Below the pieces are notes generated by a model. It saw only the letters and a list, made by a program, of their open reading frames with translations. It was not told where the DNA came from and did not search any database. A stretch of DNA of 5,250 nt from a virus (taxonomy: Duplodnaviria; Heunggongvirae; Uroviricota; Caudoviricetes). The translations under genes were made by a program, and so were the position numbers. This document shows, in pieces, positions 195-5,099 of this stretch. The stretch is from the IMG/VR virus record IMGVR_UViG_2609459846_000012; one strand, 5' to 3'. Numbering within the stretch: the stretch's first letter is position 1; every line of letters begins with the position of its first letter.

Positions 195-430
195 CCCATC
201 CACTAACACAGAGATCTAACCATGAATACTGGATATACGCCCGAACAGGGGCGGGGCTTCGTTCGTCCTGGTGAAACTAAAAAGCCATGTTATCGGGTAT
301 TTTCAGGCATAAAAAAAGCGGCCCCGATAAGGAACCGCCTTTCTGAACAATTAACCTGCTGCGAAAAAAATGGATCAGTGCAGGGGAATTATATCAACCG
401 TGTGGTGAAGCGCCACTATTGCCGGATAAC

Positions 431-463
431 AAGCAAAACAAAGGCGACCGCAAAAGGGTCGCC
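431..463 (-). terminator. Rho-independent terminator for the leftward RHH operon
   Basis: On the minus strand: GGCGACC-CTTTTGC-GGTCGCC (7-bp perfect GC-rich stem, 7-nt loop) followed directly by TTTGTTTTGCTT; lies 67 nt downstream of the minus-strand ORF ending at 530. Confidence 0.55.
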
Positions 464-529
464 AGTGGGAACAAGGGAAAACAAAAGCATCGCCAACAAT
501 GCCACATTTGCGGCTGGTGGGCAATGCAA

Positions 530-718
530 TCAGTCTGGTTCAGTTCGTTGCCATACCTGCAATGAGCGCTTTTCCCTGTACTCTTTAAGGAATTGCTCAA
601 GGGCAAAAGCACATGGCGCGAATCTTTCTGATTCATGCTCTATCTTTCTGCGCCGTCTTTTCCGTGTCGGTGATAATGTTTTGGTCAATTCTTTATCGGT
701 CATTGTGTTGTCCTGCAT
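530..718 (-). CDS. hypothetical small basic protein (57-62 aa), second gene of leftward operon
   Basis: ORF-track ORF MQDNTMTDKELTKTLSPTRKRRRRKIEHESERFAPCAFALEQFLKEYREKRSLQVWQRTEPD. The internal ATG (MTDKEL, position 703) has a better Shine-Dalgarno (AGGA, 7-nt spacer) than the first ATG. Followed by the intrinsic terminator. No recognisable family. Confidence 0.4.
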   Translation of the reverse strand: MQDNTMTDKELTKTLSPTRKRRRRKIEHESERFAPCAFALEQFLKEYREKRSLQVWQRTEPD

Positions 719-760
719 AGCAATGCGCCGTAATACCTTACACCACGGCGCTGGTGATGG

Positions 761-940
761 TTATTCCTGCTCTTTGGCCTTGCGACGCTGGCGGTATTCA
801 ACTTCTCGCTTTAATGCTGCTGTTACAAACTGCCCTGTACTTTCACCAGGCATTTTTACCGCCTCAACATTGTTCATAACTTCATGCGGAACCCTTGCCG
901 CAACTGTTTGTGATTTTGCGTTTACTGCTTTTGTTGCCAT
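761..940 (-). CDS. ribbon-helix-helix (CopG/Arc/MetJ-like) DNA-binding protein, 59 aa
   Basis: Hand-translated minus-strand ORF (below the ORF-track size cutoff): MATKAVNAKSQTVAARVPHEVMNNVEAVKMPGESTGQFVTAALKREVEYRQRRKAKEQE*. Predicted beta-strand (TVAARVPHEV), helix A, G-x-S/T turn (PGESTG), helix B fits the RHH fold pattern. SD-like AAGGGG about 7 nt upstream of the ATG. Divergent from the replication operon. Confidence 0.6.
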   Translation of the reverse strand: MATKAVNAKSQTVAARVPHEVMNNVEAVKMPGESTGQFVTAALKREVEYRQRRKAKEQE

Positions 941-989
941 GTTGTGTACCCCTTACAAAAAACAAATGCAGTATGCAGGAAAAAAAATA

Positions 990-1043
990 AGTGTTCAACA
1001 CTTGACGTGTTTAACACCAGAGCTTAAATTGGTGTTCAACACC
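990..1043. promoter_or_regulatory. divergent promoter/operator region with three palindromic operator-like sites
   Basis: AGTGTTCAACACT (990-1002), GTGTTTAACAC (1007-1017), GGTGTTCAACACC (1031-1043). Rightward sigma70-like promoter: -35 TTGACG (1002-1007), 17-bp spacer, -10 TAAATT (1025-1030). Leftward promoter candidate on the minus strand: -35 TTGAAC (within palindrome 1), 17-bp spacer, -10 CATACT (complement of 970-975). Confidence 0.5.
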
Positions 1044-1139
1044 TTACTGATGCAAGGTGCAGAAACGACGAAACCCGGCAGTGCGCTAACACTAACCGGG
1101 CTTCTAACCACCAACGATAGAAAGCGTATCGAGGTAGCT

Positions 1140-1346
1140 ATGAGAAATTATACCAGACACCCGCAAGGGCGGGACTCGTACAACCTGAATAAATACATCT
1201 GGCGTTTTATCGCCCTGAGCACGGCACAACCGCGCGTGATTACCATTGAGGCCACCAGCGAACAGGAAGCGCGTCAGCAATCTCCTGATGGCTGCGTGAT
1301 GGTATTCGCTGCCCGTATTCGTCAGGGGGTACGCCATGTGCAATAA
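1140..1346 (+). CDS. small phage protein, possibly Icd-like (host cell division inhibitor-like) family, 68 aa
   Basis: In-frame ATG inside the spurious 374-aa ORF with SD GAGG upstream: MRNYTRHPQGRDSYNLNKYIWRFIALSTAQPRVITIEATSEQEARQQSPDGCVMVFAARIRQGVRHVQ. The W.F.A....ATSE.EAR....V.VFAAR pattern matches my recollection of Icd-like small proteins annotated beside P4-family primases; the family call is from memory and unverified. Confidence 0.45.
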   Translation: MRNYTRHPQGRDSYNLNKYIWRFIALSTAQPRVITIEATSEQEARQQSPDGCVMVFAARIRQGVRHVQ

Positions 1347-1596
1347 CACCCGTCCGGACGCAGCCGCCGAAGCCATCAAAACGCTGATGCACGCGCTGAT
1401 TGATATTTCTGTTATCGCAGACAAGGCGCATAAGCGCGCCACCAGCGAAACAGAATATGCCGGGGCTTTCGTTCCTCACTCACTGGCTGTTATGCAACTT
1501 AGTGCGGATATGGCGCTGAATGAGGCTAAAGCCATCCTGATTGCTGATTGTGAAAATGGGGGGGGGTTATGCGTGATGATCGTTTTAATTCCCTGA
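1336..1596 (+). CDS. hypothetical protein, 86 aa
   Basis: ORF-track ORF; SD AGGGGG 6 nt upstream of the ATG; overlaps the previous ORF by 11 nt (translational coupling). C-terminus crosses a G9 homopolymer (1558-1566). Confidence 0.5.
   Translation: MCNNTRPDAAAEAIKTLMHALIDISVIADKAHKRATSETEYAGAFVPHSLAVMQLSADMALNEAKAILIADCENGGGLCVMIVLIP
1558..1566 (+). repeat. G9 homopolymer tract at the junction of two overlapping ORFs
   Basis: Nine consecutive G seen directly; encodes NGGG near the end of ORF 1336..1596 and acts as SD for ORF 1569..1802. Confidence 0.9.
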
Positions 1597-1802
1597 AACA
1601 GGAATTTTCCGGCGTTCCTGATGATGCGGCTGATGCGCTTTCGTCAATGCCAGAGCTTATTAGAGCGGCTTTTTTCTTACTTTCCACGAGAGAATATAAA
1701 TCAACGGGGCTTGATGTACTGAATATCGCCGCCGATTATGCGGAATATGTGGCAGAGGCGCGTTATAGAAGAAAATTTCCTGAGGATGTAAGCCATGCGT
1801 GA
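1569..1802 (+). CDS. hypothetical protein, 77 aa
   Basis: ORF-track ORF; the G9 tract immediately upstream serves as SD; overlaps the upstream ORF by 28 nt and the downstream ORF by 8 nt (ATGCGTGA). Confidence 0.5.
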   Translation: MRDDRFNSLKQEFSGVPDDAADALSSMPELIRAAFFLLSTREYKSTGLDVLNIAADYAEYVAEARYRRKFPEDVSHA

Positions 1803-2028
1803 TATTTACCACGAAACAATAGACCGCGCATTTCTTGCACTTTCTCACAGTGAAAACATGCTGGAAATATTGCGCATATGGCTTGAAACACTTGGCGACA
1901 ATGAACGCGACAAACAAAAATCAAGAATTGCCACGGCATTAATAACGCTTCTTGAGCCTGTAATAATGGAACTGCAAGAAATAGATCTATTGCACGACAG
2001 ATATAAAGAACAGCACACCGGAGAATAA
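1795..2028 (+). CDS. hypothetical protein, 77 aa, predicted mostly helical
   Basis: ORF-track ORF; SD GAGGA 8 nt upstream; start overlaps the upstream stop. Confidence 0.5.
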   Translation: MRDIYHETIDRAFLALSHSENMLEILRIWLETLGDNERDKQKSRIATALITLLEPVIMELQEIDLLHDRYKEQHTGE

Positions 2029-2033
2029 AAATA

Positions 2034-2333
2034 ATGAAACTTAAATATTCTGGCTTAACTGCCAGTGGCAACACTCACCCTAAATTTACGCGCGGCGATA
2101 TTTACCGCGACCAGTACGGCGGCACGGTAATGATTAAGGACGTGGAAGAACGGCGCGTAACCTACCGCCGTGAAGGTTACGAATATGATTGCGTGATGCC
2201 TGTTTATCAGTTCCGGCGTGATTTTTCTCTGGTACAGACCGCGCCGCATAACGTGTCCACCAGCAACGCCAGGGCACGGGCAAACATCCAGAAGCTGAAA
2301 ACCATGATTAACGGATTCAGGGGTAAAAAATGA
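2034..2333 (+). CDS. hypothetical protein, 99 aa, immediately upstream of and coupled to the replication gene
   Basis: ORF-track ORF; SD GGAGA upstream; stop overlaps the alpha-like start (ATGA). Occupies the position that epsilon/orf151 hold relative to alpha in P4 as I recall it, but no sequence support for homology. Confidence 0.55.
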   Translation: MKLKYSGLTASGNTHPKFTRGDIYRDQYGGTVMIKDVEERRVTYRREGYEYDCVMPVYQFRRDFSLVQTAPHNVSTSNARARANIQKLKTMINGFRGKK

Positions 2334-4144
2334 AACTGGCACCGAACGTAAAACAGCAGTCACGCGGCATAAAACACAAAGAAACAGAAGTCATTATTTT
2401 TGCGGGTAGTGATGCCTGGTCACACGCAAAACAATGGCAGGAACATGACGCGCGTATGGCCGGAGATAATGAGCCTCCTGTGTGGCTTGGGGAGCAGCAG
2501 TTATCCGAACTGGATAAGCTGCAAATTGTGCCGGAAGGCAGAAAATCCGTGCGCATATTCAGGGCCGGATATCTTGCGCCAGTAATGATAAAGGCGATTG
2601 GTCAGAAGCTGGCGGCGGCAGGCGTACAGGATGCAAATTTTTATCCTGAGGGTATGCACGGCCAGGAGGTGCAGAACTGGCGCGAATATCTGGCCCGTGA
2701 GCGCCAGAATCTTTCTGATGGTCTGGTGATTCAGCTTCCTGTTAAGAAAAAAACAGAAGACAGCGCCGCACCACTGGCGCTTAACCAGATGGGAGCAAGC
2801 CAGCGCGGCGAAGTTCTCCTGGCACATTATGGCGGTGAACTGGCGATTCATGCCGACTCTGACACTGTTCACCATTACAACGGCGTTGTATGGGAGCCGA
2901 TTCAGGATAAAGAGTTACAGCGTGCTATGGCGCAGATTTTCATTGATGCGGAGATCAGCTATTCGCAGAACGCCATTAAATCGGCGGTCGATACCATGAA
3001 GTTAAGTTTGCCTGTAATGGGGAATACAGCCCGTAACCTGATTGGATTCAGTAACGGGGTATTTGATACCAGAACAGGTAATTTTCGGGAGCATAACAAA
3101 AACGACTGGTTGTTAATTGCCAGTGAATTACCTTTCAGCCCACCAGCAGAGGGGGAAACGCTGGCAACACATGCGCCGAATTTCTGGAAGTGGTTACGCT
3201 GCTCGGTGGCAGAGAATGACCGCAAGACGGATCGCGTGCTGGCTGCATTATTCATGGTGCTGGCGAACCGGTACGACTGGCAGTTATTCATTGAGGTAAC
3301 AGGTCCAGGGGGAAGTGGTAAAAGCGTGATGGCGGAGATTTGCACCATGCTGGCGGGTAAGGCCAACACAGTATCGGCAAGCATGAAGGCGCTGGAAGAT
3401 GCAAGGGAACGCGCGTTAGTGGTTGGCTTTTCGCTGATTATCATGCCGGATATGACCCGCTACGCTGGTGATGGCGCAGGAATTAAGGCTATTACAGGCG
3501 GTGACAAGGTGGCAATCGACCCGAAGCATAAAGCCCCCTACTCAACACGCATTCAGGCGGTCGTGCTGGCGGTGAACAATAACGCCATGTCATTCAGTGA
3601 CCGCAGCGGGGGGATCTCACGTCGTCGGGTGATATTCAATTTTTCGGAGGTTGTACCGGAGAACGAGCGCGACCCCATGCTGGCAGAAAAAATAGAAGGA
3701 GAGCTGGCGGTTGTGATTCGCCATCTGCTTACTCGTTTTTCTGACCAGGACGAAGCTAAACGCCTGCTGTATGAGCAGCAGAAATCAGAAGAAGCTCTGG
3801 TGATAAAACGCGAGGGCGATTCGCTGGTGGACTTCTGTGGCTATCTCATGTCGTCGGTAATGTGTGATGGTCTGTTAGTGGGTAATGCCGAAATTATTCC
3901 GTTCAGTCCGCGCAGGTATCTTTATCACGCCTATCTGGCATATATGAGGGCACACGGATTCGGTAAACCTGTAACACTGACGCGCTTCGGTAAAGATATG
4001 CCGGGGGCAATGGCGGAATATGGCAGGGAGTATATAAAACGGAAAACGAAGCACGGTTTGCGTTCAAATGTGACACTGACAGAGGATTCAGAAGACTGGA
4101 TGCCATCATGTGCATCGGTCACAAATGACGACAGCAAAAATTAA
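2330..4144 (+). CDS. P4-alpha-like replication initiator: D5_N-like region plus SF3 (P-loop) helicase, 604 aa
   Basis: Walker A VTGPGGSGKS (nt 3302-3325); Walker B-like hydrophobic run ending in D (LIIMPD); motif C-like VVLAVNNN; upstream GFSNGVFDTRTGNFREH resembles the D5_N / P4-family primase C-terminal region. Cognate iterons lie immediately downstream. The N-terminal ~200 aa are unassigned. Confidence 0.85.
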   Translation: MKLAPNVKQQSRGIKHKETEVIIFAGSDAWSHAKQWQEHDARMAGDNEPPVWLGEQQLSELDKLQIVPEGRKSVRIFRAGYLAPVMIKAIGQKLAAAGVQDANFYPEGMHGQEVQNWREYLARERQNLSDGLVIQLPVKKKTEDSAAPLALNQMGASQRGEVLLAHYGGELAIHADSDTVHHYNGVVWEPIQDKELQRAMAQIFIDAEISYSQNAIKSAVDTMKLSLPVMGNTARNLIGFSNGVFDTRTGNFREHNKNDWLLIASELPFSPPAEGETLATHAPNFWKWLRCSVAENDRKTDRVLAALFMVLANRYDWQLFIEVTGPGGSGKSVMAEICTMLAGKANTVSASMKALEDARERALVVGFSLIIMPDMTRYAGDGAGIKAITGGDKVAIDPKHKAPYSTRIQAVVLAVNNNAMSFSDRSGGISRRRVIFNFSEVVPENERDPMLAEKIEGELAVVIRHLLTRFSDQDEAKRLLYEQQKSEEALVIKREGDSLVDFCGYLMSSVMCDGLLVGNAEIIPFSPRRYLYHAYLAYMRAHGFGKPVTLTRFGKDMPGAMAEYGREYIKRKTKHGLRSNVTLTEDSEDWMPSCASVTNDDSKN

Positions 4145-4158
4145 ACTTATGGAATAAC

Positions 4159-4386
4159 TGTTCACCACTGTTCACCCTGTTATAAATATCTTTTATATCA
4201 GTACATTATAGGGTGAACAGTTATTTGTGAACTGTTCACCAAACTATTCACTGTTCACCTTTTTGATTATTTATTGAGCTTTAAGGGTGAACAGTGGTGA
4301 ACAGTTGGTGAATAGTTTTTGTGAAACTGTTCACCCCTTAACATTATGAATAAAAAGGGAAAATATCAAAAGGTGAACAGGTGAAG
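4159..4386. repeat. origin of replication: iteron array of TGTTCACC octamers in both orientations, interspersed with AT-rich tracts
   Basis: Forward TGTTCACC at 4159, 4169, 4233, 4252, 4328; reverse GGTGAACA at 4212, 4286, 4296, 4372; degenerate copies at 4177, 4245, 4307, 4380. Adjacent copies are spaced 10 bp apart (4159/4169; 4286/4296). AT-rich stretches at 4177-4210, 4260-4284, 4336-4370, 4389-4418. The octamer is identical to the type I iteron bound by P4 alpha in ori and crr, as I recall it. Confidence 0.8.
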
Positions 4387-4431
4387 GGTTAAAATGCAAA
4401 AATTTTATTTTATTGCTGTGAGGTAAAGCCT

Positions 4432-4677
4432 GTGACAACGAAGCACGCAAAAAAACCACAATCTCACGCCCTTGATTTGACAGAACACTGGCTGAGGGTG
4501 GCGATAAAAATCATCGACCGCAACGCGGGAGAAGGGTACGCAAAAGCACATCCCGAACTGGTAAGCGCATTCATGACCACGGCAGCGGCAAACTTTGCCA
4601 CGCTGACAGAACGGGAGATTGCCGAAGCGGAACAGGTGACAACCATCAACGTTAAAACCGGAGAGCAGACAGCATGA
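4432..4677 (+). CDS. hypothetical protein, 81 aa (GTG start)
   Basis: ORF-track ORF; GAGG 8 nt upstream of GTG; stop overlaps the start of the SSB-like gene (ATGA). Confidence 0.55.
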   Translation: MTTKHAKKPQSHALDLTEHWLRVAIKIIDRNAGEGYAKAHPELVSAFMTTAAANFATLTEREIAEAEQVTTINVKTGEQTA

Positions 4678-5099
4678 CAGCACAGATAGCGGCTTACGGG
4701 CGGCTGGTGGCTGACCCGCAGTTAAAGACCACCAGCAAAGGGACACAAATGGCGATGGCGAGTATGGCGGTTCCCCTGCCGTGCAGCCAGGCAGATGACG
4801 GAACGGCGACGATGTGGTTATCTGTCCTGGCGTTTGGCAGACAGGCCGACGCACTGGCAAAACACCACAAAGGCGAACTGGTGAGCGTGGCGGGTAACAT
4901 GCAGGTGAGCCAGTGGACAGGCCAGAACGGGGAAACGCGGCAGGGCTGGCAGGTTATTGCAGACAGCGTAATCAGTGCGCGAACGGCGCGACCGGGCGGC
5001 AAAAAAGGTCAACAGGGCCAGGCCACTGACGCACTGAACAGGGCAAAACAACAGACAAGCCAGCACGATGACCCGTACGGGGATAACATACCGTTTTAA
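4674..5099 (+). CDS. compact single-stranded DNA-binding (SSB-family, OB-fold) protein with conserved acidic C-terminal tip, 141 aa
   Basis: By-eye alignment to E. coli SSB: IAAYGRLVADPQL vs VILVGNLGQDPEV; MWLSVLAFGRQADALA vs EWHRVVLFGKLAEVAS (W54 and F60 equivalents kept); SQWTGQNGETRQGWQVIAD vs RKWTDQSGQDRYTTEVVVN (W88 equivalent kept); C-terminus DDPYGDNIPF vs SSB tip DFDDDIPF. The Gly/Gln-rich linker is much shorter than in host SSB. Confidence 0.7.
   Translation: MTAQIAAYGRLVADPQLKTTSKGTQMAMASMAVPLPCSQADDGTATMWLSVLAFGRQADALAKHHKGELVSVAGNMQVSQWTGQNGETRQGWQVIADSVISARTARPGGKKGQQGQATDALNRAKQQTSQHDDPYGDNIPF

Follow-up and report, generated by a model that had tools for sequence, protein, structure and literature searches.

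A conserved N-terminal domain without recognizable primase signatures precedes the P4 alpha-type helicase module in the replication protein of a capsid-forming phage-inducible chromosomal island of Escherichia coli

The alpha protein of P4 (777 aa) unites primase, helicase, and origin binder in one chain, and its relatives include the Pri-Rep proteins of phage-inducible chromosomal islands (PICIs), a gene class that is already known and has been studied functionally. The pri-rep-ori region from one such island, EcCICFT073, sustains replication of a plasmid in DH5alpha with no helper phage present (Fillol-Salom et al. 2018, PMC6092414), and PICI origins are located 3' of rep (PMC6092414). Helicases of mobile elements with D5_N/primase_Cterm or DUF927 domains are often misannotated as primases (PMC10061031). 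Here, we describe the replication gene in a 5,250-nucleotide stretch of virus record IMGVR_UViG_2609459846_000012 (the window, meaning the whole stretch analyzed), which is 100% identical to E. coli chromosome NZ_CM128603.1 and lies within an island that, by the layout of its genes, is a capsid-forming PICI (cf-PICI). The gene product is named a DNA primase in RefSeq. We conclude that its first ~130 residues form a separate domain (the N-domain) in which no primase signature is recognizable, and that the primase label is probably wrong.

The larger part of the protein, which matches phrog_864 (E 5e-193), is readily interpreted. In BLASTP, residues 137 to 604 align to residues 313 to 776 of P4 alpha with 49% identity, and residues 1 to 136 are left unaligned. 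Judged by sequence, residues ~150 to 604 are a P4 alpha-type module that consists of a D5_N collar, a hexameric helicase of superfamily 3 (SF3), and a winged-helix origin binder (Table 1). The Walker A motif, GPGGSGKS, is encoded at nucleotides (nt) 3302 to 3325, a match to PDB entry 7ola spans residues 236 to 439, and the winged-helix domain matches the solved structure of the P4 alpha C-terminal domain (PDB 1ka8; E 3.3e-24). The TIGR01613 (primase_Cterm) model scores 96 bits, under its cut-off of 108.7. The start of the gene overlaps the stop codon of the upstream DUF4222 gene (ATGA at 2330 to 2333), and the reading frame cannot be extended upstream because an in-frame TAA lies at position 2324.

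The two proteins part company at the N terminus. In P4 alpha, Pfam identifies Zn_Ribbon_Prim (residues 30 to 66; E 1.9e-18) and Toprim_3 (210 to 299; E 1.2e-12), the latter with the EGYATA motif at 214 to 219. In the island protein, Pfam detects no domain before residue 161, even at E<=1. Residues 1 to 312 of alpha, which carry the zinc ribbon and Toprim domains, have no counterpart, and an unrelated domain of ~130 residues plus a linker stands in their place. The initial annotation of this DNA, a reading of the letters alone, had reported that neither a P4-type primase signature nor EGYATA was visible in the N-terminal ~200 residues. EGYATA is indeed absent, and Pfam and BLASTP bear out the missing signature; its extent, however, had been overestimated. 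The segment without a P4 alpha counterpart comprises residues 1 to ~135 (nt 2330 to 2734) rather than 1 to 200 or 210, and residues 137 to 210 are homologous to the linker and D5_N of P4 alpha.

A primase encoded elsewhere on the island was not found either. No zinc ribbon, Toprim, or archaeo-eukaryotic primase (AEP) signature occurs in the replication protein or across the 15-kb island, whose RefSeq annotation holds no other primase gene. Searching the 15 kb by tblastn with P4 alpha 1 to 312, DnaG 1 to 430, and gp4 1 to 260 returned no match, including to any cryptic or frameshifted primase. The island differs in this respect from SaPI Rep and SCCmec Cch-type helicases, which are accompanied by a separate upstream primase (AEP Pri or the CcPol-MP pair) and lack the N-domain.

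Conservation within the N-domain was evaluated in an alignment of 34 diverse members that are 21 to 68% identical to the window sequence. Only A4, G26, A29, and L58 are invariant, with P50 and A95 nearly so; among a set of full-length members, R125 joins the invariant positions, and Q10 and E20 come close. No strand has an invariant acidic residue at its C-terminal end, and a histidine motif is lacking. The alignment, Pfam, and hhalign failed to reveal the glutamate and DxD metal ligands of Toprim, and the AEP catalytic core (DxD...H...D) was likewise not found in the N-domain. Regarding zinc binding, residues 1 to 136 contain no cysteine, and no zinc ribbon Pfam match was obtained for the protein or the 34 members, none of which has a Toprim or prim-pol Pfam match at E<=1. 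When an alignment of 38 N-domain sequences was compared by hhalign with the Toprim families of P4 alpha (53 sequences) and DnaG (112 sequences), the probabilities were 0.2% and 0.4%, respectively. The initial annotation had suggested that two acidic motifs, AGSDAW and HADSD, could belong to a divergent Toprim or prim-pol domain, an idea to which these values lend no support. In AGSDAW, D28 is not conserved, and only G26 and A29 are invariant, and HADSD (residues 174 to 178; nt 2849 to 2863) is part of D5_N, where it aligns to 'VDANG' of P4 alpha. As the N-domain has neither the Glu and DxD of Toprim nor zinc ligands, and no acidic residue is invariant across the family, we consider the domain very unlikely to synthesize primers. 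The pattern of conservation would fit a domain for structure or interaction and does not fit a nucleotidyl-transferase.

We therefore favor, with moderate confidence, the interpretation that the protein is a helicase-initiator with a non-catalytic accessory N-domain and is primed by the host. The suggestion made earlier of a helicase-only initiator that relies on host DnaG fits the lack of Zn-ribbon, Toprim, and AEP signatures in protein and island, of N-domain cysteines, and of an invariant acidic residue. Several points weigh against this interpretation. P4 replication is independent of DnaG. In some distant members of the family, strand 4 is followed by a semiconserved 'D-(E/N)-(A/L)-G-Q' that recalls 'DxDxAG' of Toprim, and strand 1 begins with an acidic residue; these features may be a sign that some members have residual chemistry, or chemistry of another kind. 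Three differing candidate registers place the Toprim catalytic positions on the N-domain, none of them significantly. Finally, the identity of any N-domain partner is pure inference.

Some observations are what might be expected if the N-domain were itself a primase of a new and strongly diverged kind, either a novel priming domain or a Toprim in cryptic form, and the protein a true primase-helicase like P4 alpha. The N-domain is located where Toprim and AEP primase domains sit, and this in four helicase architectures (PMC10061031); the island has no other primase gene; the EcCICFT073 replicon functions without a helper phage; and distant members carry the 'D-E-A-G'-like motif. The window protein also has a weak match (E 1.3e-4) to phrog_1139, in the zone where the P4 alpha Toprim maps. 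That link was tried and rejected, as only 1 of the 34 members reproduces it. At the position of the motif, YDEA in distant members corresponds to 'YPEG' or 'Y-KG' in the window protein and its near relatives, and family-wide no acidic or histidine residue is invariant. There is no cysteine or zinc-binding element, the hhalign probabilities are negligible, and ~130 residues are far below the size of the DnaG RNA-polymerase core, which needs an N-subdomain in addition to Toprim. We thus regard a divergent primase as highly improbable. Profile and structure searches did not confidently match the N-domain to any primase domain that retains its catalytic residues; such a match is what the initial annotation had named as decisive against its own proposal.

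The predicted structure of the N-domain is well defined. AlphaFold2 gives a compact alpha/beta domain (mean predicted local distance difference test [pLDDT] score, 86.8; predicted template modeling score [pTM], 0.82) in which strands (residues 20 to 25, 51 to 53, 73 to 78, and 101 to 105) alternate with helices (29 to 44, 55 to 59, 84 to 96, and 118 to 129). The same domain appears in the full-length model, followed by the disordered linker ahead of D5_N. According to these models, the N-domain is an independent globular domain of ~130 residues on a flexible linker of ~20 residues, with what appears to be a flavodoxin/Toprim-like three-layer fold. Foldseek found no significant match for the model in the PDB, and in BFVD it found one uncharacterized phage protein of 112 aa (E 3e-4), the DnaG-Toprim matches being marginal only. 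Sequence searches of Pfam, NCBIfam, and the PDB (phmmer/hmmsearch) yielded no family match for the N-domain, and PHROGs places it in phrog_2850, of 'unknown function' (22 of the 34 members).

The best PDB profile match of the family, which is non-significant (E 0.019), is the CWB2 domain of Cwp8. CWB2 domains (Cwp8/Cwp6) have a Toprim fold without metal-binding side chains and serve a structural role (PMC6755086). Nevertheless, CWB2 is an extracellular cell wall anchor of Firmicutes, and its similarity to the N-domain is marginal and implies no functional relation. It is plausible, although unproven, that the N-domain is a degenerate Toprim. If so, it might be a vestige kept for single-stranded DNA handling or assembly, as in Twinkle, whose N-terminal domain has lost primase activity (PMC7231222). 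The parallel is incomplete, as metazoan Twinkle retains Toprim motifs II to VI and has a DnaB/gp4-type (SF4) helicase, whereas N-domain proteins have no detectable Toprim motif and carry helicases of the SF3, RepA, or VapE type.

Alternatively, the N-domain could be unrelated to primases and represent a generic flavodoxin- or receiver-like interaction or regulatory domain. In the structure comparisons, the scores of Rossmann-like folds, including receiver and PTS-IIA, fall only slightly short of those of Toprim, and no sequence link to Toprim exists; however, the acidic pocket of receivers is missing as well. We consider this alternative possible but unlikely, and return below to the partner that such a domain might bind.

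The family is small and has a consistent position. A profile of residues 1 to 140 searched against 1.84 billion representative proteins returned only 138 matches at E<=1e-3, many of which are short fragments. The domain is N-terminal in every complete protein inspected, and in full-length members it precedes one of four helicase/NTPase modules: D5_N/DUF5906/Pox_D5, DUF927, AAA_25 (RepA-like), or VapE-like. Its DNA is present in 1,728 of 5,426 complete E. coli genomes (about one third), in up to six copies per genome, and the genes go under four product names: 'DNA primase family protein', 'DUF927 domain-containing protein', 'helicase RepA family protein', and 'primase-like DNA-binding domain-containing protein'. 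In one E. coli DUF927 gene (H20), the N-domain DNA is 96% identical to that of the window. A profile scan of contigs, run with the narrower of two alignments (A1; the broad alignment, A2, is too diverse), gave matches in Enterobacterales only, and close relatives occur in Shigella, Raoultella, Kluyvera, Pluralibacter, Citrobacter, Winslowiella, Cedecea, and E. albertii. One distant member (P0200; L008 5157-12743) lies in an islet with the gene order int, HTH_17, Phage_ASH (P4 epsilon-like), N-domain-DUF927, and Mor, so that the range of the N-domain extends beyond the E. coli group to satellite-type elements, P4-like or other.

Many database entries with this N terminus are fragments or fusions, as might be expected if the protein were the decayed, N-terminally damaged product of a P4 alpha pseudogene with a meaningless N terminus. 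However, the N-domain is conserved down to ~21 to 22% identity and confidently predicted, about one in three E. coli genomes and several further genera of Enterobacterales carry it intact, and the EcCICFT073 replicon, whose function has been demonstrated by experiment, has it too. A pseudogene or truncation was therefore rejected, and we assign it a negligible probability.

Comparison with EcCICFT073 indicates what the N-domain does not do. The Pri-Rep protein of that island (WP_000761835.1) has the same overall architecture and an N-domain with 135 of 140 residues identical, and the left arms of the two islands (int, HTH, Icd-like, DUF4222, pri-rep, hypothetical protein, and SSB) are collinear. 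In contrast, the helicase/origin-binding parts are only ~45% identical and represent different 'allelic' replicon cassettes. At the DNA level (blastn), homology of 93.5% extends across the upstream open reading frames (ORFs) and the N-domain (window positions 1514 to 2751), breaks sharply at nt 2751 (codon 141, in the linker), and resumes at 4467, in the 81-aa ORF that precedes ssb. Essentially no DNA homology to EcCICFT073 is seen in between, where the helicase, winged helix, and origin lie. The sharp breakpoints at 2751 and 4467 therefore point to exchange of helicase, winged helix, and origin as one cassette. On this sequence evidence, we interpret the helicase plus origin as an exchangeable specificity cassette and the N-domain as part of the conserved backbone, and it would therefore be unable to set origin specificity. 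Presumably, the N-domain contacts something constant. Three E. coli proteins (P0037, P0040, and P0048) have the N-domain joined directly either, in a product of 233 aa, to the C-terminal portion of the SSB of the island or to PerC-like sequence, and they look like deletion derivatives that lost the helicase/origin cassette at about the same boundaries.

The constant contact could be a product of the island itself. In the version of the generic-domain alternative that names a partner, the N-domain might bind, e.g., the product of the DUF4222 gene, whose translation is probably coupled to that of the replication gene; or it might gate helicase loading according to an induction state that it senses. 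The N-domain and the upstream DUF4222 gene stay together as backbone during helicase/ori exchange and are joined by the stop/start overlap, and DUF4222 is located just upstream of most E. coli N-domain copies among the matches listed. On the other hand, distant members such as P0200 have no detectable DUF4222 neighbor, several E. coli matches are likewise without a listed DUF4222, and the EcCICFT073 pri-rep-ori construct was sufficient for replication.

A host partner has also been considered, with the N-domain as an adaptor that couples a foreign helicase to a constant factor (host primase or SSB) or to an island protein. In the most specific form of this idea, the N-domain would have taken the place of the primase in enterobacterial satellite replicases and would tether helicases of four unrelated families to one host factor that stays constant (DnaG, SSB, or the Pol III holoenzyme), a proposal that we hold to be doubtful. 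Were it true, priming would be outsourced to the host, and the helicase/origin cassette would be free to swap. The N-domain would then represent a 'primase-recruitment' domain of a new class, and the way in which SF3 helicases obtain lagging-strand primers in bacteria could find its explanation here.

The putative origin shares its iteron with P4. In the AT-rich intergenic region directly 3' of the replication gene, TGTTCACC occurs in clusters, with nine exact copies and one near copy in both orientations (4159 to 4380), compared to two exact copies elsewhere in the window. This octamer is identical to the type I iteron annotated in P4 ori and crr, despite the initiator's 49% identity to alpha. 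In both systems the iteron cluster lies beside the gene, although the P4 origin is split into ori and crr.

Returning to the helicase-initiator with an accessory N-domain, we propose the following course of events. The gene would encode the replication initiator ('Pri-Rep') of the cf-PICI. The protein has the sequence hallmarks for recognizing the downstream iterons and unwinding the origin, so its D5_N/SF3/winged-helix module would bind the adjoining repeats and open the DNA there. Primers would come from the host, most likely from DnaG, and the island SSB, which ends in a canonical acidic ...IPF tail, may help to recruit host factors. The N-domain would serve as an accessory module without catalysis of its own, staying the same as one helicase/origin cassette replaces another.

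The coordinates of the features are collected in Table 1. The assignment of the island (~14 to 15 kb) to the cf-PICIs was made because of the RefSeq gene layout, the iteron origin, and the left arm collinear with EcCICFT073, the prototype PICI of E. coli. It is inserted between allE and allC (RefSeq annotation) and extends from int to TerL at L001 10376-24465. The 5' part encodes an integrase, an AlpA-like helix-turn-helix regulator, an Icd-like protein, and several small ORFs; the middle encodes the DUF4222 protein, the 604-aa replication protein, a small hypothetical protein, SSB, and a ProQ/FinO protein; and the 3' part encodes the major capsid protein, prohead protease, portal, connector, HNH, TerS, and TerL. 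No tail or lysis genes are present in its RefSeq annotation. This is the gene layout of the cf-PICI type (PMC10085698), and the capsid, portal, and terminase genes are additional relative to EcCICFT073.

Table 1. Features of the replication region in the 5,250-nt window
Feature	Position	Strand	Evidence
DUF4222 gene, 99 aa	2034..2333	+	Pfam DUF4222 E 8.3e-24; RefSeq annotation
P4-alpha-like replication initiator/SF3 helicase, 604 aa, island 'Pri-Rep' (RefSeq 'DNA primase family protein', WP_001735913.1)	2330..4144	+	ORF list
N-terminal alpha/beta domain, residues 1-130, no known family or catalytic signature	2330..2719	+	Structure prediction, family searches
AGSDAW motif, residues 25-30, C-terminal end of strand 1	2402..2419	+	G26, A29 family-invariant; D28 variable
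Disordered linker, residues 131-149	2720..2776	+	pLDDT <50 in full-length model
D5_N domain, residues 161-290	2810..3199	+	Pfam PF08706 E 4.8e-13, 50 bits (cut-off 22.4); P4 alpha alignment
SF3 helicase P-loop NTPase DUF5906, residues 324-432	3299..3625	+	Pfam PF19263 E 6.6e-11, 43.3 bits (cut-off 27.6)
C-terminal origin-binding winged-helix domain Pox_D5, residues 495-590	3812..4099	+	Pfam PF03288 E 3.7e-13, 50.2 bits (cut-off 21.4)
Putative replication origin, AT-rich intergenic region, 287 bp, ~39% GC	4145..4431	.	Iteron cluster; position 3' of replication gene
Conserved hypothetical protein, 81 aa (phrog_1231)	4432..4677	+	phrog_1231 match
Island-encoded SSB, 141 aa, C terminus ...DDPYGDNIPF	4674..5099	+	Pfam SSB E 4e-16; TIGR00621 above cut-off; translation

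Other observations concern the surroundings of the replication gene. Upstream, positions 1336 to 2333 hold a chain of four small ORFs (86, 77, 77, and 99 aa), each overlapping the next and the last overlapping the replication gene, an arrangement that suggests translational coupling. They belong to phrog_5146/2512, 24341, 2196, and DUF4222, all of which have no assigned function. Further upstream, a 374-aa ORF with an ATG start (222 to 1346, plus strand) covers a truncated RefSeq pseudogene (222 to 759), a YlcI/YnfO gene (761 to 940, minus strand), and the Icd-like gene (939 to 1346), and it is probably not a genuine gene. The gene for the ProQ/FinO-family RNA chaperone lies just past the window, downstream of the origin (L001 17136-17666).

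Beyond the gene class itself, three aspects were not found described in the libraries searched: that the 'Pri' part of enterobacterial Pri-Rep proteins contains no recognizable primase, that a distinct, unnamed family of ~130-aa domains is common to four helicase architectures, and that a swappable replicon cassette has its left boundary in the N-domain linker. The literature searched contained no study of priming in Gram-negative PICIs. The finding alone reveals no new mechanism; it raises the question of where these satellites obtain their primers. It also corrects a widespread annotation, as N-domain genes, which have no recognizable primase, bear the name 'Pri-Rep' in the PICI literature and the label 'DNA primase family protein' in many of those complete E. 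coli genomes (about one third) that have the domain. The family has neither a Pfam nor an NCBIfam model, nor a name. Its function is directly testable, given the clear boundaries, the confident model, and the tractable EcCICFT073 pri-rep-ori plasmid assay. The swappable cassette for replicon specificity bears on how satellites avoid incompatibility. If these elements are indeed primed by the host, replication of PICIs and cf-PICIs would depend on host priming, unlike that of P4, and the conserved N-domain would be the obvious candidate for the coupling.

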